The notes beneath the pieces were generated by a model, which saw nothing but the letters and a program-made list of their open reading frames with translations, ran no database searches and was not told the DNA's origin. This document shows positions 3,696-44,028 of a DNA stretch of 64,000 bases, in pieces (the stretch's first letter is position 1; every line of letters starts with the position of its first letter). The translations under genes were made by a program, and so were the position numbers. Origin of the DNA: a virus; the UHGV virus genome UHGV-0084588. One strand, given 5' to 3'.

Positions 3696-6600
3696 CTAAG
3701 TACGATCCCCTAACTGCTTCCCGTTAAGTTCTCGTTTCAGTACAGCCAGAATCCACTTCCACGCTTTACTCGTGATGTGGTACGGGTTGCGTTTCTCCAT
3801 TAAGAACTGACTTTCGCCGCTACGGAGTTCGAAACTCTGTGCATTGAGTTGATCTTGACGGACGCTTTTCTCGTCAGTGACATCTAACGAACAAGCGAAG
3901 TTAAGTTCATAACCTTCTGGATTATTGCCGGGTGGTTCTAAGACAATATAAATGTCCTGACCTACACGTAAGTCCTTTGGCGTAAGAGTAATCGCTTTAC
4001 CTGTATCAGAGGCGGTCGAAAGCGCAAAAGATACGCTATCAATAGCCGATACATACGGGTCCTTCCCGGCATCACCGATAATCACTTTACCCGGCCAGTT
4101 AGACTTCACCGTCCCGGCCACTTTTGCAACGCGATACTGCTGTTTATCAGCACCTTGTGCAAAGCGTAAAATGAGTTTATGGCGATAACGACTCGCAGCA
4201 GCTTTAGTCGTGCTCCACTCATTATTCCAGGAAGCGTTGAGTTCACCTTTCTTGGCCATCAAGGCACCACGAGACAGCTTACGGTCAAAGAACTGCGCAG
4301 GCAACTGACCGTCATGGGAAACAGCAACACTTCCCTGTCCGGTTGGCAGCGCGATGCTTTCTGTAACGCGGTATTTTTGACTAACCTCATAAGTCGCAGG
4401 GTCAATCACAGACTGACTAAAATCAACGTCTTTGGTATCAGCCAAATACCCAACGGACGAATCCAGATACGATTCGAACAACGAACGTAAGTAATGGTAC
4501 TTATCAATGTCGACGTTACTCGTAGCCGGATCAATCAGCGCGTGACTAATCGTTACACGGCATTTCGCAGACAGTTCTTTAAACGACAATCCCACACCGT
4601 CGCCAGTGAAATAATCCACTAAATCGAACGGGAATTGAATCTCCAGCTGTCGATGTTTAACTGTTGTCGTTCCGAACTGTGAGAACGTCAGTGCTAAACG
4701 TAATACCCGACTGTTTACGTTGTAACGATAGCGAATCATGCCACGAGGTGCATGGTTTGCAGAAATTTTATCTCGACCGGCACCCCAACCTATCAAGTCG
4801 AGCGTCGCCGCGTTGGTTTCCTCACCGTTGAACAACACATCCTTAAACGTTGCGGCCACTGCCGTTTCCCCAGACTCCTCCATCACTAACGGAATATCCG
4901 TAACAGCAGAATCTGAACGGGAACCAATCCCCAACTTACAGGTTTTGGTAGTTAGGTCAATGCGCAGATAGCGACGTTTAACGCTGCTACCTTGCGTTGA
5001 CGTGCATAGAACCAAATCCGGCGCAGCAGCAAGGGCTTGCGTTCCACCAACATCGTCAACATCGAACGCAAACGAGCCTTCGAATGTCGGTGCGTTGTTT
5101 TCTTTCGGGTTAAATGGTGTAAACCAACAATACGGCGTAGCACCTTCAGGTATCACAACGTATTGAAGACTCGACTTCACGTTTTGGTTGTGTGCGTAGG
5201 TATAAAGGCCGCGACTGACAAGATGGAAAACATCCCCTGTAGCGGTTGCTAACGGTTTCCTAAAGATACACGCTCTTGGTTCAGCAATAGCACGGTTTAA
5301 TAACGGCAGCCGTGGGTTATCCGTTAACGCCCAGTCAACAGCGCTGAGTCCGTGTGCCTTACGAGTGCTGATGTGCTCGCTAACTTCCGCACTTTTCCCG
5401 AAATCAAACGTGGTTTCAAACCCCACAGTTTTATTCGCGTAAGACTGACCAGGAACGATATCAACATATCCGATATAACCGCGCTCTGGGTCAACGGCAA
5501 TACTCTGAATCGGTTCAGCACGCGAATACAGAGAGCCTGTGAGCATGTTAACGTATAAATAGTGACGAACCCCTACGTGCGTTGTAACAAACTCCTGGAG
5601 AAGCTCTACGCGCGTTTCAGGACCACTGAAATAAACGGGGTAATCACCATCGTAAACTTCGAACTGTACCGCTGCGGATTTAGTCGTGTCGCTACACTCG
5701 GCTTTAACCGCCACTGTGTAATTTTCAACGTCTGCTGACGTTTCATACACCGCGACGAGTGGAGACTCGCCTGAAGCGGCCTGGATACCGTTAATGTAAA
5801 CCGTAACCTGACCACCCCCAGCAGCATAAACCCAGAGCTTCGGTTGGTATGCTTTTACACGCGTTTTTGCCAATACAGTAATAACTGACTGGTCACCCAT
5901 CTGTGTAGCAGTCTTACCTACCGGGACAGACTGGAACCCCATCAATGGCGGTTCTTCAATACCCGTCCAGTTGATCCCCGTACCGTTACTCACCTTACCC
6001 GTAGCCCAAGTCAGCTCAAGTTGGTTATTCGGTGAGAACCAGTTAAACATCGGGGTGGTTTGCAGGTCAATCGCACCGGTAACGGTACTGTCACCTTTCG
6101 TGCCGTCCAGCAAATAGAAATATTTCAAATCCTGAACGGAGATTGCCGTACCCTGGCTATTAAATCGCCAGTCTGCGCCTTTTACAGCAGCGAAATCCGT
6201 GACTGTTCCTTCTTTCGCATTTGCAATTGCCGCAGCGACCACACTTAAACGTGCCGAAAGCTCTTTTAAGATGTTCGGTACCACTGCACGGTTTTCAACC
6301 AAACCGTTCTGGTTAGTTGCATAACGACCAATACCGTAAACAGATTGAGAAGCTTTATAAATGCCTAACTCCGACCAATCGTGATGATGGCCTACATCTG
6401 CTAGACCGCTAACCGCCTTAGTTAACTCGGTTGACAACGGTTTGTCAAGGTCTGCGGTGTTATCCGCTTGCCCTAACCCCAGGTCAGCTTTCGTGATTGT
6501 CCTGGAGCCGTCATTCATTGGCTTACCGTTAATCATGGTCGTTTTAGCCACATACCCTGATAGGTCGGTCGAATAAGGTGTTAATGACGCTGGCGTTGCT

Positions 6601-7877
6601 GCAACCCCAACCGTTTCTGTACCTTTACCAGTTTTAAGCTTAACAACACCTTTTTCAGCGGTTGTCGCTTTCGTCGGGTCGATAGTACCCACGATAGGAT
6701 CGGTCCGAGAGCCTTTACCGGTGAAGCTAATCCCATTACGGCCTTCGATGTACACCTTCGAGTCATCAGGGTCACCGCCGCCGCTCCCGCCAGCATCAGG
6801 ATCTTGTTGGTATTCCATCAACGCCGTGGTAGTCAGTAACGGGTTACCATTCAGGGTGAGTTTGTTCATCCCTAAAGCATCGCCGGTTGACTCGATACGT
6901 AAGGTGTTTTTACCAGCACGCCAGTTAATGTAACGTCCTGCACCCGTTCCCTCCAGATGCCCTACCGCCAACACCACAGAACCGTTGGATTTTAACGTAA
7001 AGCCATCATTCGCAAAAATGATTTCTGACTCACCGTTTTTTGAGCGGAATTGTGCACGGTTTCCTGACACCGTACAGTTAAACACACCCCGTACTTCTGA
7101 AGAAATCCAGTGGGAGATATACGTGTCAATAACTGACTGTGGTAAACGAAACGCTTTCAGTTCATCCGTCAGTGCTTTCAACTTTAACCCGTACGCCATA
7201 AAGGTGTCGGGTGTTTTCAAGTTAACAGGATGTGCGCTAATCTGTGCAGAAGTAGTTTGGTGCGGGTTGGTTTCCGCGATGTGTGCCGGGTAGTTAAATG
7301 CTTCGATTTCTTTACCCAGAGCGGTGACTAACGCTTTAACTTCGGCTAATTTATCTTTAATTAGTTGGTTAGCGTCGTCGGTTTTCAATTCAACATCGTG
7401 GACCGCTGACGCTAAATATTTTTTGTTCAGCAAATCCGCCCAGGACGTTGCCGCAGGCGTAGCCGGGTATAACGACGGTCTGCCTTCTAATAACAGCCAA
7501 TCAGCGCTGACTGGGTTATTCAAATATTTCACCAGCTCATCGAGAATGTCAACAAACGGGTCGTAGAACGTACCACCGAGCATTTGTCCTTCAAAGGTTA
7601 CGATGCCCTTGATGGATGGGTTGATAAGGTGTACCCCACAATACACGTTGGCTGCTACCGAGTCATCCAGTTCTGTCAGTTGGTATTGCAGTTCGTAGTC
7701 CACCCCACGACTCAGTGGGGTGGTTGAACCTGGTTGTCTGACGACTAAATCTTCAAAGAACGGGCGATGGTCTAAAATCACCACCCGATCGTTGTTGTTT
7801 TCTGACCCGATGATACGCTCCTCTAAGAAGTGATTCTCGGTTTTCGTCCCCCGAGGATCGTAAGGATACGCTTTCAT
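3696..7877 (-). CDS. Tail fiber-like protein (about 1393 aa)
   Basis: Track ORF 3696..7880; the first M is TTG, ATG is at 7877 with AAGGAG upstream. Gly/Ser/Thr-rich, GGSGGGDPDD linker, HHH motif (VGHHHDW). Lies 13 nt downstream of the 1440-aa gene, so probably co-transcribed. Confidence 0.6.
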   Translation of the reverse strand: MKAYPYDPRGTKTENHFLEERIIGSENNNDRVVILDHRPFFEDLVVRQPGSTTPLSRGVDYELQYQLTELDDSVAANVYCGVHLINPSIKGIVTFEGQMLGGTFYDPFVDILDELVKYLNNPVSADWLLLEGRPSLYPATPAATSWADLLNKKYLASAVHDVELKTDDANQLIKDKLAEVKALVTALGKEIEAFNYPAHIAETNPHQTTSAQISAHPVNLKTPDTFMAYGLKLKALTDELKAFRLPQSVIDTYISHWISSEVRGVFNCTVSGNRAQFRSKNGESEIIFANDGFTLKSNGSVVLAVGHLEGTGAGRYINWRAGKNTLRIESTGDALGMNKLTLNGNPLLTTTALMEYQQDPDAGGSGGGDPDDSKVYIEGRNGISFTGKGSRTDPIVGTIDPTKATTAEKGVVKLKTGKGTETVGVAATPASLTPYSTDLSGYVAKTTMINGKPMNDGSRTITKADLGLGQADNTADLDKPLSTELTKAVSGLADVGHHHDWSELGIYKASQSVYGIGRYATNQNGLVENRAVVPNILKELSARLSVVAAAIANAKEGTVTDFAAVKGADWRFNSQGTAISVQDLKYFYLLDGTKGDSTVTGAIDLQTTPMFNWFSPNNQLELTWATGKVSNGTGINWTGIEEPPLMGFQSVPVGKTATQMGDQSVITVLAKTRVKAYQPKLWVYAAGGGQVTVYINGIQAASGESPLVAVYETSADVENYTVAVKAECSDTTKSAAVQFEVYDGDYPVYFSGPETRVELLQEFVTTHVGVRHYLYVNMLTGSLYSRAEPIQSIAVDPERGYIGYVDIVPGQSYANKTVGFETTFDFGKSAEVSEHISTRKAHGLSAVDWALTDNPRLPLLNRAIAEPRACIFRKPLATATGDVFHLVSRGLYTYAHNQNVKSSLQYVVIPEGATPYCWFTPFNPKENNAPTFEGSFAFDVDDVGGTQALAAAPDLVLCTSTQGSSVKRRYLRIDLTTKTCKLGIGSRSDSAVTDIPLVMEESGETAVAATFKDVLFNGEETNAATLDLIGWGAGRDKISANHAPRGMIRYRYNVNSRVLRLALTFSQFGTTTVKHRQLEIQFPFDLVDYFTGDGVGLSFKELSAKCRVTISHALIDPATSNVDIDKYHYLRSLFESYLDSSVGYLADTKDVDFSQSVIDPATYEVSQKYRVTESIALPTGQGSVAVSHDGQLPAQFFDRKLSRGALMAKKGELNASWNNEWSTTKAAASRYRHKLILRFAQGADKQQYRVAKVAGTVKSNWPGKVIIGDAGKDPYVSAIDSVSFALSTASDTGKAITLTPKDLRVGQDIYIVLEPPGNNPEGYELNFACSLDVTDEKSVRQDQLNAQSFELRSGESQFLMEKRNPYHITSKAWKWILAVLKRELNGKQLGDRT

Positions 7878-7890
7878 CAAAAAATTCTCC

Positions 7891-10800
7891 TTAATCGCGA
7901 ATGATTACCGCCTGCACTTTATTGTTGGTGTCGATAAACGACATTACGCGCTCCTTGTTAAGATAAGGAGGTATCGGTAACGCAGCGTAATCCGCCAGGC
8001 TGTTATTAAATTCAGTTGCCACTAACGCATTAAGCGTTTCGGGGTCTGAGCTGACACCGGCCAATTCCATGACGCGTACTCGATTTAATGAGGAATAGTT
8101 GCTAATATAGTCCAACAACGTACCGTAGACTTTATTCGCAGTTGCGCTGTCTGCTGTAGAGCGGATGTTGGCACGAACCTCATCCTCATAAAGTCCCCCT
8201 AAACCGTAGTAAATAGGGGTATACGGATCATTAACAATAGGTTCGATATTGAACCCGGTTAAACGGTCGACTAATGGGATTTTCTGCGTAGTTCCCCCTG
8301 CTGCCGTACAGCTTACGTATTTATCTGTCGTGGATAAAAACACCACGATAGTATACACAGTGCCAGCTAAAGTCAGCGATGCATTAAACGTTATTGCGTT
8401 GTTTGCACCACGGGTGTGGGTAAACGTTACGTCAGGTTGTAATGAACTCCACGGTGCAGCTGTAACACGCTTCGTTGGTGTGAAACCTACCACTACCGAT
8501 TTCCCGCTACCGAAGTTCAAACCGAACCCTGCGTAACAATATTCACCGTTACTGTCAGTTAAACGATAACCGCGAGTGATGAGTAATGACAACCGCATAA
8601 ACTCGCCGTCGGTGTTCTTCCAACAACCTAAAACAGTTTCTAACACTGTTCCGGTTTTTGCGTTGCTTTCTGTTTCCCAACTTACCCGCATTCCTGCGTT
8701 TTTGAAAGTCGGGAATAAGTTGTGAATAAAACCATGAAGGTTATCACTTACCCCTTTCGCATCGAAAACCCACTTTGATGCGAGCTGGTCGTATTTCACC
8801 CCGTCTAAGGCTCTATACTGTCCACCGACGACATAACGCCAATCTGCTTCACCACGTACTACTGCCTGGAGTCCCGAAGCCCAGCAGGGCGCACCTACCG
8901 TTAAGTTAGCTAACCCAAGCACTGCACGTGTCGTGGAGCGGTGAATATGCGCGTTATCGTCAGCAGCGTGATCTTTCAGTTCACGGAAATCGTCCAGCCG
9001 TGTGACGTTACGCATCTCTGTAACGAACACTTCAGAAAGGTCATTGACGCCGATTAATCCCACACGCGTCATGGTATCCGTTTCAGCCTGACTGTAGCTG
9101 TCGTGAATAATGTACTTCGCTTTGTTGTCAACAATATCAACAAAAATCCCCGCGTAGATTTCTGTATTCAACTTCGGAAAACGTTCACTGACGTTAATCG
9201 TCGTCAACGGCACGGTGTATGTTTCGCCACCGATAAAATACGTTGATGCTGGAAGTGTAACCAGTATTTTGTCTTTGACCGTAACATCAATTAAGTCGTT
9301 ACCAGACTTACCAAAACGTATAATGTCGAGACGTGCCTCCGAGTCAACACCCCCGACAGCACTTTCCAATTTTTCAATCTGGGTAGTCTGCGCCATTACC
9401 ACACTGCCATCGAGTGCTAAAGTCGCGTCGTCCACATCCAGACCAAATTTAATCAAGCCACGTTTCGCGGTGGTTGCGTTCCCGGTACCAAATGCGGTAA
9501 ATGGGTGGTGGTGTACTTTAGGCGAATATTTATCTAACTCCGCCTGCTGTGCTGTGGAGATCGGCAAATCGACATCGGGTGTATTCGCAACGTTACCCAA
9601 ACCAAAGGTAATTTTGTCGATAGTAACTGAGCTGGTAAGTTGCATGTCGTTAATGTACGATTTAGCTGCAACTAGTTTACCGGTAAACTCAGCGTCCAGT
9701 TTTTCAATCAATGCGGGGGTTGCTGCGAGATTTTCAGCCGTACCGAATTCGTCCGTTAACTGCCAACACGCTAACGTAGTAACGTCTTCGGCAACCGGAA
9801 GAATAAACGTTGCTACGAATGGCGATGCTTTAATCCCACTACCGGTAAGTTCCACCGTAGCTGTAGATGCACCGTAGAATAATCCCGTACCACCTGCAGT
9901 ATTGCCCGGCAAATACGGCGCTACCGTGGTGGGGTCTAAGAGCTTCTTACCACGCCACAGTAATCCTCGGTCATCGGGATATAGCACAAGCTGGTTGTCG
10001 CCCGCTTGCAACGTTACCGGGTTGTTACCCACGTTAACATCAGTAGAACCTTGGCCGATGAACTTAATGGATTTCGGGTCAACGACAAACTGGGCACCTA
10101 AACGGGTCCCGTCAACGACATCGGGCGCTTTCTTAATGGTAACCGTGTTACCTTTATTCCCCGAGCTAATAGTGACGTTGTCAGCAACATTACCGATCAA
10201 TGATTTAAAGTGGTGGCTATTCTCCAATGCTTCTAGTGCAGCGTCCATGTTAGTGAAGTTAACACGTGCACTATATGTCTTGCCGTTTATGGTAATAACG
10301 ACATCAAACACGTTCCCTGTGCGTTTCAGTTGAAAACGCAGCGTAAAATCCCCATCCGGTATTGCTGGATTAGGAGCTTGGGAAAGATACTGAACTTCCG
10401 GTGTGGGATTCGAAAAACCGTTCAGTTCCAACTTAACGCCGACTTTACCCGCAGAAATTTCACCTGTAAGCTGGATAAATTTTCCAGAGTTAGTACCAGG
10501 TTTCTGATAGAAACGTAGGCTAACCGTACCGACGGCTTCATTACCAGACGCTGTTTTACGTCCGGTAACAATAAAGTCAATATCTTGCAGGTTAGCAGGT
10601 ACCGCATTAAAAGAAGTGGTGAATCCACTCTTCGTTCCTGTGTAACGAAGCGCACCGTGATACCTGTGACCATTACTAACGTAGCTTTCGCTAAAACGAG
10701 GACTCACGTATTTCGACATTGACACCGGGTCAACTTCCGTCGTGAACGAAGTAAAACCGGGCAGCGTTCCAATAGTTCCGTTAGCCGTTTTCGTAGCTGA

Positions 10801-12213
10801 CGTGCGTAATAGTTTCTTTTGTGCTGTCAACGTCGCTTGTGTTGGATACTTAGCATTAACATAGTCCGTTAACTGCGGCTTCGTTTTTCCGTAAGCTAAT
10901 GCTGCATCCGACGCAATGCCGTTCAACTCTAACGCACGGATCGGACCCCACGTATCTGTGTGTGGGTTGTCCTTACGTGTAACGTGTTCGTGCGCAGGCG
11001 CATTACGATACAGCTGCTCAACTAACTGATGATACTTAACTATTAACTGGTAAACATCGTTATCGACGTCGGGCTCCGGCGCACCGGGTAAAGAACGAAT
11101 TTGAACATAATCGTTTTCAGCCGCATACCAGTTCAGGTTAATGTTCGTTTTAGACTTCAACCATTTGGCTACATTCGTTTTCGAATACCCTGCCGAGAAC
11201 TCATCAGGCGGCGTATCGACGTTGAATGTATAATCCATGGTCTGTTTATTTGTTTTTACTACGATTACGTAAACGCCGTTTCCGGGCTGACGGGTTACAC
11301 TAAAATCGATATCGTTTTTTAACTCATCGTCAGTTAAACCGTTGATTAAAGTATAATCGTAGTTTGTTGAACCACTGCCAATAGCGACAGTTAAGACCAG
11401 TGAGATTTTGCGCTGTTTTAGCTGTAACCGTAGAATGCTTGCACCGCCGTTGGCATAACAGAGCATCCAATCGATCTGCTCGTTCGGATTCAACTTTGTC
11501 ATGTCTGGCAGAATAGCAGGAATTCTGTGTTTCACCGACAGGGAATAGTCGTTAAAGGTTGTCGCGTTATAACTCAGGCTATAACGGTGGCGAGCTGTGT
11601 TGTAGGTGAAACCGCCTTTATTATCGTACGCGGCATACTGCTCGGAAGTGATAACCTTGCTATTAGCACGATATTCCAAATCCAGTGTGTTGCGTGCGAT
11701 TGGGTTAAGCCGACTCACGACTTCCCCTAACGAATCGCCTACCCCAGCAATGGCCTGCATTAGCTCCAGTTCACCTTTCCAATTCTCCCAATCGAACTGG
11801 ATATCGACCGGTGGAAAGTAAACGTCTCCGATAACGGTGTCCCACTGACACGCGGAAGGGTATTTACCTTTATTAAGCTCGCGCTCTGCGGTAATCTGCT
11901 CTTGGGTTGCTTCACCGCAACCAACGGCATGGTAATCTACAGTAAAGTTCGATTTGTATTTGTCATTAACAATCCAAATCATCCCGTGAATGAGATAGGC
12001 TGTGCGCAACATACCAGTCTCGTACGGGTGTGTAATAACGTAATCGTCGCCTAAGGTCAGTATTTTGCCGCCGCTCTTGACCACCAGGGATGTGGTGAAA
12101 AAAGGGGCGTGGGCAGGTACCAACATTCGGTATTTCGTACCAATGACGGCGACCGCTTCACCGGTTATTTTATTCCCCGGTTTTTTGAAGTGTGGGTCTA
12201 AGACGACAGCCAT
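7891..12213 (-). CDS. Tail fiber-like protein (1440 aa)
   Basis: Track ORF with ATG at 12213 preceded by TAGGAG; very large Thr/Gly/Asn-rich protein with VHHH motif; second of three tandem giant genes. Confidence 0.6.
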   Translation of the reverse strand: MAVVLDPHFKKPGNKITGEAVAVIGTKYRMLVPAHAPFFTTSLVVKSGGKILTLGDDYVITHPYETGMLRTAYLIHGMIWIVNDKYKSNFTVDYHAVGCGEATQEQITAERELNKGKYPSACQWDTVIGDVYFPPVDIQFDWENWKGELELMQAIAGVGDSLGEVVSRLNPIARNTLDLEYRANSKVITSEQYAAYDNKGGFTYNTARHRYSLSYNATTFNDYSLSVKHRIPAILPDMTKLNPNEQIDWMLCYANGGASILRLQLKQRKISLVLTVAIGSGSTNYDYTLINGLTDDELKNDIDFSVTRQPGNGVYVIVVKTNKQTMDYTFNVDTPPDEFSAGYSKTNVAKWLKSKTNINLNWYAAENDYVQIRSLPGAPEPDVDNDVYQLIVKYHQLVEQLYRNAPAHEHVTRKDNPHTDTWGPIRALELNGIASDAALAYGKTKPQLTDYVNAKYPTQATLTAQKKLLRTSATKTANGTIGTLPGFTSFTTEVDPVSMSKYVSPRFSESYVSNGHRYHGALRYTGTKSGFTTSFNAVPANLQDIDFIVTGRKTASGNEAVGTVSLRFYQKPGTNSGKFIQLTGEISAGKVGVKLELNGFSNPTPEVQYLSQAPNPAIPDGDFTLRFQLKRTGNVFDVVITINGKTYSARVNFTNMDAALEALENSHHFKSLIGNVADNVTISSGNKGNTVTIKKAPDVVDGTRLGAQFVVDPKSIKFIGQGSTDVNVGNNPVTLQAGDNQLVLYPDDRGLLWRGKKLLDPTTVAPYLPGNTAGGTGLFYGASTATVELTGSGIKASPFVATFILPVAEDVTTLACWQLTDEFGTAENLAATPALIEKLDAEFTGKLVAAKSYINDMQLTSSVTIDKITFGLGNVANTPDVDLPISTAQQAELDKYSPKVHHHPFTAFGTGNATTAKRGLIKFGLDVDDATLALDGSVVMAQTTQIEKLESAVGGVDSEARLDIIRFGKSGNDLIDVTVKDKILVTLPASTYFIGGETYTVPLTTINVSERFPKLNTEIYAGIFVDIVDNKAKYIIHDSYSQAETDTMTRVGLIGVNDLSEVFVTEMRNVTRLDDFRELKDHAADDNAHIHRSTTRAVLGLANLTVGAPCWASGLQAVVRGEADWRYVVGGQYRALDGVKYDQLASKWVFDAKGVSDNLHGFIHNLFPTFKNAGMRVSWETESNAKTGTVLETVLGCWKNTDGEFMRLSLLITRGYRLTDSNGEYCYAGFGLNFGSGKSVVVGFTPTKRVTAAPWSSLQPDVTFTHTRGANNAITFNASLTLAGTVYTIVVFLSTTDKYVSCTAAGGTTQKIPLVDRLTGFNIEPIVNDPYTPIYYGLGGLYEDEVRANIRSTADSATANKVYGTLLDYISNYSSLNRVRVMELAGVSSDPETLNALVATEFNNSLADYAALPIPPYLNKERVMSFIDTNNKVQAVIIRD

Positions 12214-34154: not shown

Positions 34155-34889
34155 ATGACCTACCCAAAAATTATCACCCCGTACACACCGACGTTGGTTA
34201 TTGGTGCCGATGTAGAAACCAAATCGTTACGCCCCGATGCTTATCTGTTGAGTGCAGGATTAGTGGCGTTTGACGTCCCTACCTTGAAAATGGTTGGTTC
34301 CTCATACATCCGTATCGATCCTAACGATCCTAAAGCAAAAGCTATTTTCCACGAAGACCCACAAACGGTTGGATGGTGGGAAGGTAAAGGCGAACCTGAA
34401 TACGCACCGTCTCGTGAAGCCTATGCGGAAGCATGGGGTGGAACAACAGCATTGCCTGATGCTCTGTGGGCGATGCAAAAATGGCTCGGGGAGATCACCG
34501 CAAAACATGAGTTTGTTATTACCATGCGCGGTCCCGACTTCGATGCGCCGATTTTCATGAACGCTTTCGCACAGTGCGATATTCCGCCAGGGAAGTTCCG
34601 TAAATTTAGTGCGCTGGATAGCGATCGCACCGCAGAGCGTTTAGCCTTTGCGTTTGGTTTCGAACCCGACTTAACGGTAGAGCAAGTTTATTGGACGCGC
34701 GGTAAGCCCGCTTTTGAGCACCACGCAATGTGGGATGCAGCAAAAGAAGCCTACACCACGGCACGTATTTATCACCTCGCTTTGGTCACCCGCCAATACG
34801 GGTTTGAACGCGCCAAAGCCTGTCACGAAGAACTGAAAACTGGCGAGTATGTTGCGCCGCAGATTCGTGATCAATTAACCAGGGATTAA
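34155..34889 (+). CDS. DEDDh-type 3'-5' exonuclease (DnaQ/RNase T-like)
   Basis: 244 aa; ExoI-like VIGADVETKS (D-x-E), ExoIII-like EHHAMWDAAKEAY (H-x-A-x-x-D). Confidence 0.6.
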   Translation: MTYPKIITPYTPTLVIGADVETKSLRPDAYLLSAGLVAFDVPTLKMVGSSYIRIDPNDPKAKAIFHEDPQTVGWWEGKGEPEYAPSREAYAEAWGGTTALPDALWAMQKWLGEITAKHEFVITMRGPDFDAPIFMNAFAQCDIPPGKFRKFSALDSDRTAERLAFAFGFEPDLTVEQVYWTRGKPAFEHHAMWDAAKEAYTTARIYHLALVTRQYGFERAKACHEELKTGEYVAPQIRDQLTRD

Positions 34890-34891
34890 GA

Positions 34892-36412
34892 ATGAAGAAC
34901 GTTGATGTTGCAGTAATTTACACGGACGGTAGCCATTTGACCTCCCCGCTCGGTACAGGGGCGGGGATTCATGGATACTTATTTAATCGTGAAGCGATTG
35001 AGGATGGTCGGGTTTACCGCCATCCCACTATTCCAGAGGGGATTACGACGTCAGGATACCGCCAGATAAACAAGGATGAAAAACTTCCGCCTTTACCAGA
35101 AACCGTGGAGTTTATTGACGGCGTTGTTCCTGTACCAAAAATGTCACACTCCGACGTTGCAGAACTCGTGGCTTTCCTGACCGTCTTCGAACACGCCCCC
35201 TTCGTTGCCAAAAACTACGTTATCTATATCGACGCATCTTACGTTGTCAACACGTATAACGACTGGATCGATGGTTGGGCAGCACGTGGTTGGCGTCGTG
35301 CGGACGGTACACCTATTGCGAATCTGGAATTAATCCAACGGATGTGGGAGGTTAAACATCGCTTAAAGAAAGAAGGGAAAGGTGTTCGTGTCCTTAAAAT
35401 TAAAGGCCACTCTGGACGTTATGGAAACGAACGCGCAGACGAGTTAGCGCGGAAAGGCTCAATTATCTCTGCCCGAGGGGAGGGGTTAGACTATACACCG
35501 TATTGGTCAAAAGACGAGCTGCCTGAGGAAGAACAGCAACCGGAAGTTGTTGGTGAGGGTGTCAATTTGTCCGCTTTCCCCGATATCTGTGTTACGAAGT
35601 TCTGTTACCCGATGGTGAACGAACCCCATCCCACTGTTACAGTTAACGGTAATAAACTTTATTACATGTTCGGTGGAAACCACGCAAAACAGAAGGACGA
35701 TATCGTCTTCGTTGGTAAGTACATTCCAGATGCACAATTCTGCGTAATGTTTACCAAAGAACCGTGGGATAACGTATACGAGTTGGTAAATACCCATTCT
35801 GCGAAAGCGTGGGAAGGGGTGCCCCGTTTACGTCAATTTGATCCTATCGCCGTTGTTTTTAACTTATTCGTAAAGCGTAAGAAGTTCGCAGAAGCCGCTG
35901 CTAACGGCATTCCTATCGATCGGATGCATTTTAGCGAAGACAAAAACCTGTGGATGTTTGAAGATCTTTCGATTACACGAATTCTTCGTCCTGCGCTATT
36001 ATCTTATCGTTGTATTGCGATTCGTGATGAGCTTGCAGGTTGGTTACGCGATGCCATGGAAGGGAAAAACTCAGTAGTGTTGAATGACATTACTGACGTA
36101 CTTTACGATGAGAAAGGTAAGCCGAAGAAAGACATTTATCGTAACGTAGATAAAGGTTTTGACGTAACCATCCAGATCCCTGGTAGTAAAAACAAGGTTA
36201 AAGCTATCCTTACTCGAGGTATCGACATACCGACGCGTACGGAAATCAACCGTATCAAAGAACCGGAAGGGCGGTTCTACGTGGCTGTACGTCGTCCAGA
36301 ACGGCAGTATATCGAATACGCGTTGGTTTATATCGGGGAAAAATATCATGGTTTGTGGTGCGGCTATTATTCAAACAAACGAATATTGACGGATAAGGAG
36401 CTTGAATGCTGA
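34892..36412 (+). CDS. RNase HI domain protein with about 300-aa C-terminal extension
   Basis: VAVIYTDGSHL..., IDASYVVNTYNDWIDGWAARGWRRADGTPIANLELIQRMW, KIKGHSGRYGNERADELARKG match the RNase HI catalytic motifs (recalled E. coli: TDGSCLGNPGPGG ... KGHAGHPENERCDELAR). Confidence 0.8.
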   Translation: MKNVDVAVIYTDGSHLTSPLGTGAGIHGYLFNREAIEDGRVYRHPTIPEGITTSGYRQINKDEKLPPLPETVEFIDGVVPVPKMSHSDVAELVAFLTVFEHAPFVAKNYVIYIDASYVVNTYNDWIDGWAARGWRRADGTPIANLELIQRMWEVKHRLKKEGKGVRVLKIKGHSGRYGNERADELARKGSIISARGEGLDYTPYWSKDELPEEEQQPEVVGEGVNLSAFPDICVTKFCYPMVNEPHPTVTVNGNKLYYMFGGNHAKQKDDIVFVGKYIPDAQFCVMFTKEPWDNVYELVNTHSAKAWEGVPRLRQFDPIAVVFNLFVKRKKFAEAAANGIPIDRMHFSEDKNLWMFEDLSITRILRPALLSYRCIAIRDELAGWLRDAMEGKNSVVLNDITDVLYDEKGKPKKDIYRNVDKGFDVTIQIPGSKNKVKAILTRGIDIPTRTEINRIKEPEGRFYVAVRRPERQYIEYALVYIGEKYHGLWCGYYSNKRILTDKELEC

Positions 36413-37074
36413 TCGTTTATAGTGAGGTCTTGTCAAAAGCCCCTCGGTTTTTACAAACTCACTTTATGTATAACGCACGGCAGTATTGGGGCTTTAAAGC
36501 CCCTTACTCCGAAGATTGGGAAGTTGTGGAAAAGTTAGCATTTGTGTTTTCTCTTTCGTTGTTGTGGGAGATCATTGCACTATACAACGCGGGTTGTGAT
36601 ATCCCTGAGAACGGCTTTTTCCAACAACACCTATTCCAAAAATTCACAGCATCGATAGAAAATCATGAAGTACGCAAGGAGTGTATCGGCTACGCAGAGC
36701 ATTCTGAAGAATTGAGAAAGATTTCCAAATTAGTTATCACGCGGGCATGGGCTGAATTCGAAACTTACCCCGAAAAAATAATTTGGTTTAATCGTGAACA
36801 GTTTATTAAAGAGGCAGTCAGTCAACATCCCGTTCGATTAATCGTGTTAAAGCCGTCCGATCTTGCCTTACGCCGTGTCTATTCGTTTCCAGAGGAAATC
36901 ATTTTTTCCGCAGGAACAGCAGATTATGGTATTTTTAAGCAAGGTGATTCTTGGATTCTTCCGCACGACTTAGACCAGTATTTGCTCAATAGCGATCAAA
37001 TACATTCGGGTTATGACTCACAGGTGAAGGAGTTTACAGTCGATCCTTTTTTCGCTAAAAATATTCTTAGATAG
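36406..37074 (+). CDS. Hypothetical protein (222 aa)
   Basis: Track ORF; start overlaps the RNase H stop (ATGCTGA). Confidence 0.4.
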   Translation: MLIVYSEVLSKAPRFLQTHFMYNARQYWGFKAPYSEDWEVVEKLAFVFSLSLLWEIIALYNAGCDIPENGFFQQHLFQKFTASIENHEVRKECIGYAEHSEELRKISKLVITRAWAEFETYPEKIIWFNREQFIKEAVSQHPVRLIVLKPSDLALRRVYSFPEEIIFSAGTADYGIFKQGDSWILPHDLDQYLLNSDQIHSGYDSQVKEFTVDPFFAKNILR

Positions 37075-38394: not shown

Positions 38395-38919
38395 GTGGAT
38401 ATTTTAATTCAGCTTCGTAAGAAAACAACCATTGCCACGCCGATAGCGTTAGAGGAGAAAATCTCTGGCGCGGTTGCACGCAAGCTCTGTGGTGCCCACG
38501 GCTTTAGCGACCATCAGGAGCGGGTCGTTACTGCCGCCACATTACACAACTTACGACACACAGTTCATTACTGTTTAGTTGACAACGTCACCATCACTCT
38601 TGATGATAACGTAAAGGTCGACCAACTGCGACGCGAAATTGTCCACAAGATCGAGTCTTACAATAGACGTTTCGATCGGGCGTGTGCGCGTTTAACTGAT
38701 GACGAGGCTCTACGAAAACGTTTGAAACTTGAAATTGAGTATGCGGCGCAACGTTACGGGATTGGCGGTACCGAACCGTGTCTGACTGAACAAGAAATCA
38801 CGTTAGCAATCGAGGTTTATACCACTCTCTGCTGCGTCATCCTAAAAGAGACCAACCACGAAATTACAAAAGCGTTGTTAAACACCGCAGACAAACTCTC
38901 CCCAATTTTAGGACAATAA
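38395..38919 (+). CDS. Hypothetical protein (174 aa)
   Basis: GTG start after AAAGGAGTATAACC. Confidence 0.45.
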   Translation: MDILIQLRKKTTIATPIALEEKISGAVARKLCGAHGFSDHQERVVTAATLHNLRHTVHYCLVDNVTITLDDNVKVDQLRREIVHKIESYNRRFDRACARLTDDEALRKRLKLEIEYAAQRYGIGGTEPCLTEQEITLAIEVYTTLCCVILKETNHEITKALLNTADKLSPILGQ

Positions 38920-38920
38920 A

Positions 38921-39406
38921 ATGAACGTAAATGCAATTATCAATCTCTCTAATAGCGACATTGTCCACGAGTTTCTGAACCACTGCGATCGCACAGAACA
39001 GTCTATCCGTAACTTGTTAGCTCCGAAAACAGTGGATGCCATTTGGATAGCTTCACAGGCAGCGGGCGTTATCGTTGCAAGATATCGCGCGACATTGCTA
39101 ATGAATCTGGACAATTTCTTCGATCAGCCAGGGCTTATTACATGGACTTCTATCGGGCGTCGGTTTTACGACATCCGTATCGAAACCCTACGCTCGATAA
39201 TTAATGGCTGGCACAACGGGTATATGCCTGACGTAACAGTACCCTACACTGCTCCCGAATGGCGACGCTTTTATAGTCAGATATGGAGTAATGAAAGCGT
39301 TTATCATGAAATAGTGGCACTTATCAGTGCCGACCAAAGCCAACTTGCATACCAGCTATGGGAGTGGCTAAAAGCTAATTATCCTGATTACGTCAAAATC
39401 GACTAA
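38921..39406 (+). CDS. Hypothetical protein (161 aa)
   Basis: Track ORF; terminator 39412..39445 follows. Confidence 0.45.
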   Translation: MNVNAIINLSNSDIVHEFLNHCDRTEQSIRNLLAPKTVDAIWIASQAAGVIVARYRATLLMNLDNFFDQPGLITWTSIGRRFYDIRIETLRSIINGWHNGYMPDVTVPYTAPEWRRFYSQIWSNESVYHEIVALISADQSQLAYQLWEWLKANYPDYVKID

Positions 39407-39411
39407 CACCC

Positions 39412-39445
39412 ACCCTAGCTTCGGCTAGGGTAACTTTATTTTTAA
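39412..39445 (+). terminator. Intrinsic terminator
   Basis: ACCCTAGC-TTCG-GCTAGGGT followed by AACTTTATTTTT. Confidence 0.65.
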
Positions 39446-39465
39446 CCATTTTAGGAGAATATGCC

Positions 39466-40392
39466 ATGTATTTGTACAAAAGTAAAAAAGTAAAAGGTAT
39501 TAAAGACTGCCTTAGACAAATGGGGAGTCAGCATCTAGAAAATGTCATGGAAGAAAATCAAACAAAAGAAAATCCCGTCTCGAAGTGGATAAAAAAGAAT
39601 CGTAAGCATTTAACTAATGCCTTTATACCCTACGACGCTGAGTTAGGCCTCAAAGATCCCCGTTCTCTTCACGCTCAAACATTGGCAATTGGATGGCTAT
39701 ACGGTGGTGCTTCCTTAATATCCGATCGAGCACTTAGAGAACTTGTTTTCGAGACTGAGATGCCCAGTAAATTCCCTGAAGAGTGGTTAGACTTTATACC
39801 TACTTGGACTGTAGCAATCGATGTAGGTAAAGAAGATGAGACTTTCTTTCTCGGTTATCGAAAAAATAGGAATAGAAGGTTTATTATAATCGCTACAAAT
39901 ACTGATTACGGGTTAACAGAAGGCGTTACCACGATCGCCACCTGCTCGTTAGAGATATGTAGTGTTGGAAACGGGCTTGTTGAAATCGATTATACGACTG
40001 GCGTACAGACCGAACAAGAGAAGACGTTATGGTTATCACTGGCTAAGACCGCCATATCGTTGATATTTCTCTGTACGCTAATCCCGCCTAATCTCAGAGG
40101 GTCTTTCAATGACATTAAGTTCAAAGAAATCAAAAAGAATGGTAGCATAAGTCACGAAATCAAACCTCGTGAACGTGACGTTAAAATAGACATCACGCCA
40201 GGACAAGTGAAATATCTAAAGGGATTTAACACCGACTTGAAAACCATGGAAGGTATCAAACACGCCAAGGCTGCACATATTCGTCGCGCACACTGGCGCA
40301 GATATTGGGTCGGTCCAAGAGATGGGGAAAGGAAGAGAAAACTTTACTGGATTCCGCCTACATTTGTCCGTGGCTACGTACCCCACAATTAA
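39466..40392 (+). CDS. Hypothetical protein (308 aa), paralog pair with basic Trp-rich C-terminal motif
   Basis: C-terminus AAHIRRAHWRRYWVGPRDGERKRKLYWIPPTFVRGY; internal GWLYGGASLISDRALREL; AGGAGAAT RBS. Confidence 0.5.
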   Translation: MYLYKSKKVKGIKDCLRQMGSQHLENVMEENQTKENPVSKWIKKNRKHLTNAFIPYDAELGLKDPRSLHAQTLAIGWLYGGASLISDRALRELVFETEMPSKFPEEWLDFIPTWTVAIDVGKEDETFFLGYRKNRNRRFIIIATNTDYGLTEGVTTIATCSLEICSVGNGLVEIDYTTGVQTEQEKTLWLSLAKTAISLIFLCTLIPPNLRGSFNDIKFKEIKKNGSISHEIKPRERDVKIDITPGQVKYLKGFNTDLKTMEGIKHAKAAHIRRAHWRRYWVGPRDGERKRKLYWIPPTFVRGYVPHN

Positions 40393-40417
40393 GCTAAAAG
40401 TGTTTAGGAGCATTAAA

Positions 40418-41317
40418 ATGATAGCGAATAATAGACTTTACGGGAAAGCGCTAAGACGCATGAGCGAACAGATAGAAAAAGCGCACCAAACAATTCACGG
40501 ATTAGACCAGTGCCGTTTTATTCGGTTCATTAACGAGCATAAACGACAAATACCCGTAACGTTTATGCCAGTTAAAGATCCGACTTATCGAGAGTATGGT
40601 GTTACAGAACAGATTCCTAGACTGATTAAACAGTCCCTGGGTCTAGGGTGGCAATACGCTGCTGTTGAAATCATCTCGGATGAAGAACTGATGGCGCTCT
40701 TAGCAAAAACTGAGAGACTAAAAAATATCCCGTACTTCTGGATAGAAACCATCCCTTCATTTACTTTCTCGGTTACCGTAAATCTCGACGAAAGCCCAAT
40801 CACGTTATTTATCGGAAGACGTCTTTACGAAGGCGAAGAAGTTCTCTTTGTGATGTCATGCGAAGAACGTGAAGAATCGGTATACATGGAGTTTGAGATT
40901 TACAAAATCGATAAAAGCGAAGATGATTTCGTCGAGCTAAAACCGCTCCTTACTTCGGTTAAAGAGAATCAACGACTACTCGACGCCGTCTACATCGGGC
41001 TATATCTTTCGTCACGAATTAAACGTACTGAACGTGAGAAGAAAGAATTTCGTGGAAGAACGATTCGTTATGTTCCTGATACAGAGATTCGCCCACGTAG
41101 TGAAGCAGTCGTTTTAGACGTAAGTCCGGTACAATGGGAAGATATAGAGCAGCAACGCAAGGAAGGACACGAGGTTTGTTTGGCAATTTATTGCGCAGCA
41201 CATATCCGTCGTGCTCATTGGAAGCGTGTATGGTGTGGTAAAATGTCAGAAATGCGCTGGCGCGAATGGCGATGGATAGCGCCAAGCTACATCTCTGGAT
41301 TTTATCGTGGGAAATAA
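40418..41317 (+). CDS. Hypothetical protein (about 300 aa), paralog of 39466..40392
   Basis: ATG at 40418 after TTAGGAGCATTAAA (track start 40322 lies inside the upstream gene); C-terminus AAHIRRAHWKRVWCGKMSEMRWREWRWIAPSYISGF; internal GWQYAAVEIISDEELMAL. Confidence 0.5.
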   Translation: MIANNRLYGKALRRMSEQIEKAHQTIHGLDQCRFIRFINEHKRQIPVTFMPVKDPTYREYGVTEQIPRLIKQSLGLGWQYAAVEIISDEELMALLAKTERLKNIPYFWIETIPSFTFSVTVNLDESPITLFIGRRLYEGEEVLFVMSCEEREESVYMEFEIYKIDKSEDDFVELKPLLTSVKENQRLLDAVYIGLYLSSRIKRTEREKKEFRGRTIRYVPDTEIRPRSEAVVLDVSPVQWEDIEQQRKEGHEVCLAIYCAAHIRRAHWKRVWCGKMSEMRWREWRWIAPSYISGFYRGK

Positions 41318-41323
41318 ATAGTT

Positions 41324-41362
41324 TACCCCTAGACCGTGTGGTCTAGGGGTAGCTTTACTTTT
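41324..41362. terminator. Bidirectional intrinsic terminator
   Basis: ACCCCTAGACC-GTGTG-GGTCTAGGGGT followed by a long T tract, between convergent genes. Confidence 0.7.
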
Positions 41363-42118
41363 TTATTTTTTGTTTGCCTTAAGCGCTTTTAAGCGTTCGG
41401 CAGTAACGTTCAGGCATTCGATTAATTCGTTAACCTGTTTCATGAACAAACCAAACAGCTCCACCCAATCGGAAGCAAAATCTAACATCATCGTCAGTTC
41501 TTTTGCTACATTCGGATGAATGTTTTGTTCGGACAAGATTTCTGACGTAGTGCGAATAGACTCGATTGACTTGTCGATGTTTGTCCGTAGACGTTTTGTG
41601 ATTTCAACGTTCAGTGCCTTAGCGCGATTGAACGCAACATCAATTTCGGACGCGCTGTGATACGTCTTCTCAATTGGTCGCTGGTCGATAACGTTGTTAG
41701 TGTACGATTTCGCTAACAAGTTAACCAGATCTTTCGGGTTAACGTTACGTAAAGGTATATTAACATTTTTGTAACGGAAACCAATCGGTAATGACAGTAC
41801 ACCCACATCATGTGTAAGGGCCGAAAGTTGTTTATCGACCGGCAACAGAATACCCGTATAAATGTTTTGCAGTGAACTCCATACGGATTCTAAGCGGTTC
41901 AAATGATCCATCACGTAGGTATTAAACCCAGGTGGAACGATAACCAACATTCCCGCAAAGTGAAGGAATTTTTCTTGTTGCATCCACTTGGAAACGTCCG
42001 ACATCTCGTCATAAGTGGTTAATGCAATCTCTTGTTGAGGGCCACTAAAGCCTTTCGGTAAGATTGCAGACGCTTTAGCGGCGAAGCTAGATAACGCTGC
42101 AAGTGGATTTACATTCAT
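41363..42118 (-). CDS. Hypothetical protein (251 aa)
   Basis: Isolated minus-strand gene ending at a bidirectional terminator. Confidence 0.5.
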   Translation of the reverse strand: MNVNPLAALSSFAAKASAILPKGFSGPQQEIALTTYDEMSDVSKWMQQEKFLHFAGMLVIVPPGFNTYVMDHLNRLESVWSSLQNIYTGILLPVDKQLSALTHDVGVLSLPIGFRYKNVNIPLRNVNPKDLVNLLAKSYTNNVIDQRPIEKTYHSASEIDVAFNRAKALNVEITKRLRTNIDKSIESIRTTSEILSEQNIHPNVAKELTMMLDFASDWVELFGLFMKQVNELIECLNVTAERLKALKANKK

Positions 42119-42531: not shown

Positions 42532-44028
42532 ATGGCAGGCCCAACTAAACAAGTTATCGGTGAAGTAATTCGTCCACGTTTTAACGTTTACACCATCATG
42601 GATCATGCCTTAGGTAACTACGAAAAAGGTGAAGATGGTTTGTACTACCTTAACGGTGGTTTTGCCCACATCATGGGTTTCGCAGGTCGCGGTAACACTT
42701 TTAAATCCACCTTGTTAGATTTCTGTATTTTCCAAATCCTGCAACGTTATAAAGCAGAGTGGGGTTCTAAGTACGATACAGAAGTGTCAGCCGCCCTCGA
42801 TCGTTTAGAAACTGGGTACATCTCTGCCATGAACGCTAACGGTATCGACGACGGAACGTCCGTACTGGAGCTTATCCACGAAGGTCGATATAACCTGGTC
42901 GGTTCTGACGTAATGCCTGGGGAACAGTATTACAGTGATTATATTCGCGATGAAGTTGAAAAACGCTTCAAGCAGTATATGTCTGGTAAAACCCGCGTAA
43001 CGCCGTTCCCCGATCCGGTTCGTCGTAAGTTAAAAGAAATCCTGGACCCCTGGCTTTATTCTATCGATTCCCTGTCAGAGTGGCATTCCAGTTCGCTGGA
43101 AGACAAACACGCAAAAACGGATATTGGGGATTCTGATCAGAACATCCTCAACGCCCACGATGCCCTGCAAAAGTCGAACATGATGAGCCGCTGGCCGTCT
43201 GCGTTTGCACGCGGTGGTTTTTACATGGGCTTCGTGGCACAGATGGCCGATGACTCTGGGAAAGCGATGGCAGGTGGCCGTCAGGCACAAAAAGCAAATG
43301 CGAAAATTCTTGACGATGCCAACGACGATTTAAAATTCGCAGGTATTCCTCGCCGTCAGCTTAGCTTTTTAACAAACTCTTTTATCGTCGCGACGAAATC
43401 AGGGGAACTGAAGAAAGACCAGAGCTATAACGCGCAGACGGGTGTTAACGAAGAACTTTATCCGACGTCACGCTCTAAGGCGATGAATGCTTCGGTAAAC
43501 GACTTGAAGATTATCACCTTTACTCAGTATCGTGCGAAGGGTGGTCACACTGGTGTGAAATTCCAGATGATCTTCTCTCAGGAAATGGGTCTGTTATATC
43601 ACCTGAGCCTGTGGCACTATTTAAGCGACACACTGAAGAAGTCAGACTTTGGTTTCACGTCAAGCGGTAGTGGCGGCTCCATCAAAGAACTGGACATTCT
43701 ACCTGGTGTGAAATTCCAACGCACGACAATCCGTGATATGATTTCTGATAACGCACGCTTACGTCGCGCTTTAGAAATCACGGCGGCAATCGCGTATATG
43801 CAAAACAACTACCATCGTCTTGAAATGAAGTATCATCTCAGCATGGGTGAGATTTACAAACTGATTGACGAGAAGTGGGACTGGAATGAAATTCTGGACA
43901 ACACGGTAGAATACTGGATGTTTAAAGACCAGGAAACCAAAGGCGGTAAACGCACACTGACTGCACGTACTATTCTGGGTATGGCTGTCGATGGACTAGA
44001 ACCGAAGTTCCTGACGAAAAAGAAATAA
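42532..44028 (+). CDS. Hypothetical protein (498 aa)
   Basis: Track ORF; imperfect P-loop-like GFAGRGNTFKST; function not assignable. Confidence 0.5.
   Translation: MAGPTKQVIGEVIRPRFNVYTIMDHALGNYEKGEDGLYYLNGGFAHIMGFAGRGNTFKSTLLDFCIFQILQRYKAEWGSKYDTEVSAALDRLETGYISAMNANGIDDGTSVLELIHEGRYNLVGSDVMPGEQYYSDYIRDEVEKRFKQYMSGKTRVTPFPDPVRRKLKEILDPWLYSIDSLSEWHSSSLEDKHAKTDIGDSDQNILNAHDALQKSNMMSRWPSAFARGGFYMGFVAQMADDSGKAMAGGRQAQKANAKILDDANDDLKFAGIPRRQLSFLTNSFIVATKSGELKKDQSYNAQTGVNEELYPTSRSKAMNASVNDLKIITFTQYRAKGGHTGVKFQMIFSQEMGLLYHLSLWHYLSDTLKKSDFGFTSSGSGGSIKELDILPGVKFQRTTIRDMISDNARLRRALEITAAIAYMQNNYHRLEMKYHLSMGEIYKLIDEKWDWNEILDNTVEYWMFKDQETKGGKRTLTARTILGMAVDGLEPKFLTKKK

Follow-up and report, generated by a model that had tools for sequence, protein, structure and literature searches.

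Two adjacent genes, here called A and B, within a 64,000-nucleotide stretch of the virus genome UHGV-0084588 (hereafter the window) raise the question of what a phage might do with a pair of proteins that share a short GW-x-Y...ISD segment and a strikingly basic and aromatic C-terminal block. A preliminary description of the sequence took them to be paralogs of a family that it did not recognize, with a C-terminal tail resembling a nucleic-acid- or membrane-binding module. The phage itself is a relative of Salmonella phage SPN3US, a nucleus-forming jumbo phage of the Chimalliviridae, the family within which both Seoulvirus and Erskinevirus fall. Its UvsX-like protein is 81% identical to that of SPN3US, and further genes of the window are of kinds usual in the Chimalliviridae. 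The host is probably an Enterobacter (Enterobacteriaceae), as judged from one related genome, L009, a 222-kb circular replicon that was deposited as an Enterobacter ludwigii plasmid and shares synteny with the window. The pair is surrounded by conserved genes of replication and recombination, and, with the exception of nucleases and the recombinase, no named function was matched for the genes neighboring the pair in the window.

The two open reading frames are adjacent on the plus strand, just where the preliminary description had placed them, and the features of the locus are collected in Table 1. The longest open reading frame for B begins at 40322 and would share 71 nt with A; this start probably comes from the way in which open reading frames are listed. 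The ATG at 40418 is taken as the start of B because an AGGAG sequence precedes it, because the related contigs have corresponding starts, and because the protein read from this position matches the database protein P0004 (299 aa) from end to end with 100% identity. Terminators flank the pair, and a search for terminator-like sites on the genes' own strand between A and B found none; A and B thus look like one small cassette. In the Escherichia phage EC001 and the Erwinia phage Asesino, a hairpin with a different stem sequence is found at the equivalent place upstream. A scan for sigma-70 promoters returned fewer sites than were found in shuffled controls. SPN3US-like phages have their own RNA polymerases, and for this reason no promoter is claimed here.

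Table 1. Positions of genes, signals, and motifs at the A/B locus (numbering of the window).
Feature	Position	Strand	Remark
RNase H-like gene	34892-36412		conserved replication/recombination gene
Terminator-like hairpin ACCCTAGC-TTCG-GCTAGGGT, followed by a T-run	39412-39431	+	ends the upstream gene, ahead of the cassette
AGGAG, ribosome-binding site of gene A	39454-39458	+	direct reading of the sequence
Gene A, AcrVA2/FinQ-family protein (308 aa, pI 9.5)	39466-40392	+	
GWLYGGASLISD, N-terminal conserved segment of A (aa 76-87)	39691-39726	+	W77 and D87 align with AcrVA2 W79 and D89
Approximate recombination breakpoint within A (~aa 223)	40135		variable N-terminal/middle part before, conserved C-terminal third after
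AAHIRRAHWRRYWVGPRDGERKRKLYWIPP, putative C-terminal effector block of A (aa 269-298)	40270-40359	+	H271, R273, and H276 align with AcrVA2 H286, R288, and H291
AGGAG, ribosome-binding site of gene B	40405-40409	+	
Gene B, AcrVA2/FinQ-family protein, second and more divergent (299 aa, pI 8.2)	40418-41317	+	
GWQYAAVEIISD, conserved segment of B (aa 77-88)	40646-40681	+	W78 and D88 align with AcrVA2 W79 and D89
AAHIRRAHWKRVWCGKMSEMRWREWRWIAP, putative C-terminal effector block of B (aa 260-289)	41195-41284	+	H262, R264, and H267 align with AcrVA2 H286, R288, and H291
Bidirectional terminator hairpin, 13-bp stem	41323-41352		between B and the convergent gene 41363-42118 (-)
UvsX-like gene	42532-44028		conserved replication/recombination gene

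Chance cannot explain the resemblance between A and B, which spans their whole length and not the tail alone: BLASTP aligned the two proteins at E = 2e-20, with 278 aligned columns and an identity of 24%. Identity amounts to 46% in the last ~40 residues, compared with 13–28% elsewhere, and the nine residues AAHIRRAHW are the same in both. Both of the shared elements noticed at the outset—that is, the GW-x-Y...ISD segment and the C-terminal block, which reads AAHIRRAHW(R/K)R.W.G...W..WI.P—were found in each protein. In a neighbor-joining tree, A, B, and the single-copy genes of related phages form one jumbo-phage clade (98% bootstrap), with B as its first, basal branch (66% support) and with A and B as direct sisters in 24% of the bootstrap replicates. 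The view of the two genes as paralogs therefore holds in the broad sense that both belong to one jumbo-phage subclade, though they are not each other's closest relatives. A recent tandem duplication is rejected on the 24% identity and the 24% sister support, and the tree pattern points instead to an old duplication or to exchange inside this phage group.

Profile searches supplied the family name that had been missing: A and B can be placed securely, on their sequences, among the AcrVA2/FinQ proteins (PF26125, "AcrVA2-like") as diverged members. When used as a single sequence against the PDB, A gave one weak match, of its C-terminal 39 residues to AcrVA2 (7ci1, E = 3.7e-4), and the same kind of search (phmmer) with B gave none. 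With a profile of 44 full-length members, seeded from A and B, the PDB search returned AcrVA2 (7ci1_A) at E = 1.1e-39, with profile positions 33–304 aligned to positions 22–318 of the chain. Furthermore, an independent profile, from which all jumbo-phage sequences were excluded and in which the AcrVA2 sequence was included, matched A at E = 5e-28 and B at E = 3e-15, and the seeded family profile matched FinQ of the IncI1 plasmid pEK204 at E = 1.3e-45.

Database labels and broader searches were consulted as well. Precomputed PF26125 labels are carried by P0004, the protein identical to B, by P0001, which is 90% identical to A, and by both genes of the metagenomic contigs L003, L006, and L007; PHROG 6160, whose function is not assigned, matches A at 9e-38 and B at 2e-18. 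Scans of A, B, and close homologs against Pfam-A and NCBIfam gave no match, and the copy of Pfam-A that was used evidently lacked PF26125, since it returned nothing relevant for any of the 44 family members. When a profile built from A, B, and four close homologs was run exhaustively against 1.84 billion representative proteins, 643 matches at E <= 1e-3 were obtained, mostly of 300–400 aa; a word-indexed homolog search recovered merely 2–6 proteins per query, the profile query included.

Structure prediction, also proposed in the preliminary description, was run on A and gave an AcrVA2-type fold. In the AlphaFold model based on the 44-sequence alignment (pLDDT 83, pTM 0.83), a helical N-terminal domain is followed by a middle domain of mixed alpha/beta type and by a small C-terminal domain of four strands, the last of which agrees with a published description of an AcrVA2-like protein; an earlier model from a 6-sequence alignment (pLDDT 56) was too poor to use. 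The whole-chain TM-score between the model and AcrVA2 is 0.50, indicating that the domain arrangement differs between the two. The C-terminal block of A is modeled as the small domain of four short beta strands, and B, by homology, is expected to share the fold modeled for A. A fold search of BFVD returned 11 significant viral matches, the named ones being "uncharacterized" except for one "putative mycothiosynthase."

The functional weight of the two shared segments is best judged from AcrVA2, in which residues conserved across orthologs have been mutated. The substitutions H286A, R288A, and H291A abolished down-regulation of both the mRNA and the protein of Cas12a, with binding of Cas12a being kept, and W79A and D89A lowered the activity moderately (Marino et al., bioRxiv 10.1101/2022.11.29.518452). 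All five of the residues with an effect on mutagenesis are kept in both A and B. In terms of aligned positions, the GW-x-Y...ISD segment is the W79/D89 patch of the family, and AAHIRRAHW is its H-x-R-x-x-H patch. Across a family set aligned with hmmalign (156 sequences, of which ~153 were aligned at the motif columns), the equivalents of A H271, R273, H276, and G283 are 99–100% conserved, those of W281 and W295 98–99%, and that of W77 91%, and the Lys/Arg positions around the invariant C-terminal residues vary. The motif is thus widely retained in relatives, and the C-terminal block is the most conserved and functionally important part of the two proteins.

Whether this block acts simply as a basic, aromatic tail that binds nucleic acid or membrane, as first proposed, can be weighed on the same evidence. 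The last 45 residues are indeed very basic and aromatic (pI 11.6 in A and 10.6 in B, with 10–12 Lys plus Arg and 7–9 Trp/Tyr/Phe), and the need for the module in mRNA loss by AcrVA2 makes contact with RNA or the ribosome plausible. However, the pattern of invariant His, Arg, His, Trp, and Gly residues amid varying Lys/Arg resembles a site of catalysis or recognition more than a mere need for positive charge, and the block is modeled as part of a folded domain. Moreover, a hydrophobic helix is absent and nothing points to membrane binding, and no published report describes RNA binding or cleavage by AcrVA2. A generic tail is therefore quite unlikely, and the block is not a loosely built one; the invariant residues, the variable Lys/Arg, and the folded beta domain argue for a specific effector site, for which direct binding or cleavage of nucleic acid is possible.

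The slot occupied by A and B differs among related phages, the distribution of which had likewise been named as a check. In SPN3US, it is reduced to 62 bp between gp213 and gp214, with no copy of the gene; EC001 and Asesino have one copy, with JN03 and Lh1B giving matches at the corresponding position; and two copies are present in the window, in L003, L006, and L007, and in L009. This range from zero to two copies marks the locus as an accessory hot-spot and the pair as an accessory cassette. With respect to the single copy of EC001, A is 31% and B 27% identical, versus 72–83% for the neighboring genes, and by this measure the locus evolves much faster than its neighbors. The dN/dS values of 0.08–0.25 for A and B indicate purifying selection on both, from which it follows that both genes are functional. 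The location of A and B among conserved replication and recombination genes could suggest that they are core structural or replication proteins without any role in conflict. This idea is highly improbable, given the absence of the gene from SPN3US, its variable copy number, and a divergence far above that of the neighboring genes.

More detailed comparison of the two-copy lineages revealed a mosaic. Between lineages, the middle domain (aa 101–215) is the most variable part, with 48–54% identity, compared with 91–98% in the C-terminal third of A. Upstream of ~40135, L006 and L007 match the window at 81–94% of nucleotides; from ~40135 on, B included, both match L003 at 95–100%, and dS calculated by region agrees with a breakpoint near this position. 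Copy by copy, A of L006 is 91% identical to A of the window, and B of L006 is 63% identical to B of the window and 99% identical to B of L003. The locus thus presents, in a natural setting, two diverged neighboring copies and a swap of the variable part onto a constant C-terminal module, as would be expected of a modular reader/effector design. The position of the breakpoint at a domain boundary could, however, have a simpler cause, namely homologous recombination initiated where the DNA is best conserved.

The same mosaic bears on the idea that A and B act only together, as a heterodimer. The two genes are adjacent and co-oriented, with no terminator-like site on their own strand between them, and both are present in five of five two-copy genomes, as such an obligate pair would have it. 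Against this, the two genes have alleles that assort independently of each other, as seen in L006, which argues against tight co-evolution and against an obligate A–B complex; single-copy phages exist; and AcrVA2 and FinQ each act as single genes. Joint action as a heterodimer is accordingly unlikely.

What, then, might each protein do? The reading favored here, with moderate confidence, is that A and B are AcrVA2/FinQ members in a terminator-bracketed accessory cassette, each most likely being a target-specific, translation-coupled mRNA silencer. By analogy with AcrVA2, the variable N-terminal and middle domains would recognize a short peptide in one target protein during its exit from the ribosome, and the invariant H-x-R-x-x-H-W...W-G...W..P module would then trigger loss of the mRNA of that target. 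The site of action would be cytoplasmic and linked to the ribosome. A host defense protein or one encoded by a rival mobile element is the probable kind of target; A and B probably have different targets, as suggested by the low similarity of the two proteins in the recognition part, and Cas12a is probably not among them.

Several observations bear on the last point. AcrVA2 binds Cas12a at the N-terminal LSKT peptide or at residues 620–636, the latter contact being dispensable in vivo, and most members of the AcrVA2 family occur in settings that lack Cas12a (Marino et al., bioRxiv 10.1101/2022.11.29.518452). Among the AcrVA2 residues that contact positions 620–636, E98 is kept in A and B, but D129 and D195 have no aligned counterpart. 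Cas12a is not known to be common among the Enterobacteriaceae, and enterobacteria rarely carry it. The occurrence of the family mostly without Cas12a, the absence of two of the three contacts, and the rarity of Cas12a in enterobacteria together make Cas12a an unlikely target.

It is for much the same reasons improbable that A and B are strict anti-CRISPRs, blocking production of Cas12a or of another host Cas effector. Full-length homology and a common fold with AcrVA2, a proven Cas12a inhibitor, speak for such a role, as does the report of huge phages with AcrVA2-clustering proteins that "may function as Acrs." However, in addition to the missing D129 and D195 and the scarcity of Cas12a both around family members and in Enterobacteriaceae, the N-terminal and middle domains are less than 20% identical to those of AcrVA2. 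Furthermore, the phage nucleus of the Chimalliviridae is a shield against DNA-targeting CRISPR, so that protection from such systems is already in place.

A target outside CRISPR is also envisaged in a FinQ-like role, in which A and B would lower the mRNA of a key operon of a rival conjugative plasmid or co-infecting phage, perhaps at transcription rather than through translation-coupled decay. FinQ lowers the mRNA of F-plasmid transfer genes, the match between the family profile and FinQ is strong, FinQ-bearing IncI plasmids are common in the host range (~500 plasmid records), and one homolog from an Erwinia jumbo phage is already annotated as "putative protein FinQ." A lytic jumbo phage, however, has little obvious reason to block conjugation. 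Moreover, the activity of FinQ may itself be of the AcrVA2 type with another target and thus not a true alternative. On balance, a FinQ-like role of this kind is unlikely.

A broader and more tentative idea can be entertained, namely that nucleus-forming jumbo phages of enterobacteria carry a small set of rapidly diversifying, "programmable" readers of nascent chains, in which a constant mRNA-destroying module is re-aimed at other host or rival proteins by divergence and recombinational swapping, with A and B directed at two different targets other than Cas12a. Re-aiming by a swapped N-terminal/middle part finds support in the breakpoint at ~aa 223 of A, and this extended idea is possible rather than probable. 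Were it true, no system would be more tractable than this phage group, which has relatives infecting E. coli, Salmonella, and Erwinia, for a search for the non-CRISPR targets of the family and for the decay mechanism; E. coli and Salmonella, the hosts of close relatives, are easy organisms for target hunting. At the least, "hypothetical protein" can be replaced by a concrete, testable annotation for a whole group of Chimalliviridae.

Among the closest known systems are PHROG 6160 and the homologs of A and B in other Chimalliviridae, namely EC001 gp211, Asesino gp235, and those of ChrisDB, pEa_SNUABM_4/8, and the Salmonella phage SaP7, which are 25–32% identical to A and annotated as hypothetical. 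They are single-copy, unlike the two copies in the lineage of the window. In EC001 and Asesino, the slot is syntenic with that of A and B, flanked by the small genes that follow RNase H and by the convergent 251-aa gene. Relative to the sampled non-jumbo members, the jumbo-phage proteins form their own clade (98% bootstrap), in a tree that does not include FinQ itself.

FinQ, which is found on IncI plasmids such as pEK204 and R621a and carries this C-terminal block as RPHIRRGHWHTYWTG...WLPP, has in common with A and B both the family and the broad host group, Enterobacteriaceae, and has been reported to lower the mRNA of genes of a rival element. It is, however, plasmid-borne and single-copy and inhibits F-plasmid conjugation, whereas A and B are a phage-encoded pair.

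AcrVA2 (PDB 7CI1/7CI2) is an anti-CRISPR from a Moraxella bovoculi prophage with 16–17% identity to A and B; unlike it, A and B are a tandem pair in a lytic, nucleus-forming jumbo phage with a host range probably without Cas12a. It is the sole protein of a bacterial system so far reported to destroy a specific mRNA after recognition of the nascent polypeptide, and roughly 1,800 of its relatives are not tied to Cas12a. The presence of the family on "megaphages" and its link to FinQ were published previously, as were the family itself and its motif, so that A and B are members of an already known family. What the present locus adds is modest: a tandem arrangement, a slot holding zero, one, or two copies, and a mosaic at a domain boundary.

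The number of AcrVA2-like genes in the corresponding slot differs among SPN3US, Escherichia phage EC001, and the window, and each AcrVA2-like cassette is preceded on its 5′ side by a terminator-like hairpin, the stem sequence of which varies by lineage (see table). The small genes directly 5′ of the AcrVA2-like pair in the window (38395-39406 and 36406-37074) are likewise highly variable. Neither 38395-38919 nor 38921-39406 matched any Pfam or PHROG entry, and a counterpart of these two genes is absent from both EC001 and Erwinia phage Asesino; a metagenomic contig with two AcrVA2-like copies carries, at the place of 38395-38919, a different sequence with 44-53% nucleotide identity. The whole of the 36.4-41.3 kb region behaves as a variable accessory region, flanked by conserved RNase H-like and UvsX-like genes. 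Two nuclease genes (34155-36412) are located approximately 3 kb 5′ of the AcrVA2-like pair.

Locations of the AcrVA2-like slots, neighboring and paired genes, and named family members
Feature	Location	Strand	Remarks
Giant ORF, 1394 aa	window 3696-7880	-	adjacent to the next
Giant ORF, 1440 aa	window 7891-12213	-
Rv2179c-like 3′-5′ exoribonuclease gene	window 34155-34889
RNase H-family gene, 506 aa	window 34892-36412		directly after the exoribonuclease gene
AcrVA2-like slot, window	39407-41362		2 genes
AcrVA2-like slot, EC001 (same species as SPN3US)	L001 4749-5793		1 gene
AcrVA2-like slot, SPN3US	L008 6220-6283		0 genes; gp213-gp214 gap of 62 bp
Family member named "putative mycothiosynthase"	RisingSun, MF459646.1, 128869-129135
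Family member named "putative protein FinQ"	Special G, KU886222.1, 190036-190248

For gene B, the downstream member of the pair, the longest ORF begins at an ATG inside gene A (extension 40322-40417; 71-nt overlap), and this start has neither a ribosome-binding site nor homologue support; the 40322 start is likely an ORF-listing artefact. Elsewhere in the window, the giant ORFs look like a further tandem paralogue pair, with both matching one common set of virion-structural PHROGs (8078, 7557, 7449, and 2163).

Gene-for-gene synteny with the window was observed in NZ_CP134650.1 (27517-40434), a 222-kb circular replicon filed under Enterobacter ludwigii 51A:C (gull cloaca) with the name "plasmid unnamed1." This replicon is evidently an SPN3US-like jumbo phage genome deposited under a plasmid label, and its record suggests that the host of this phage group is Enterobacter.

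Records from other Erwinia jumbo phages disagree on the name of AcrVA2/FinQ family members: nearly all members not named in the table are labeled "hypothetical protein," and the RisingSun name is probably a mis-annotation. For finQ of the IncI1 plasmid pEK204 (L010 1000-1779), RefSeq gives a 259-aa FinQ starting at a non-canonical ATT, and the frame is open further upstream, up to an ATG (MEMSQLKQ...). Because a start at this ATG would extend the protein N-terminally by a region that includes the conserved Trp segment of the AcrVA2/FinQ family, the RefSeq FinQ start has probably been placed too far downstream.
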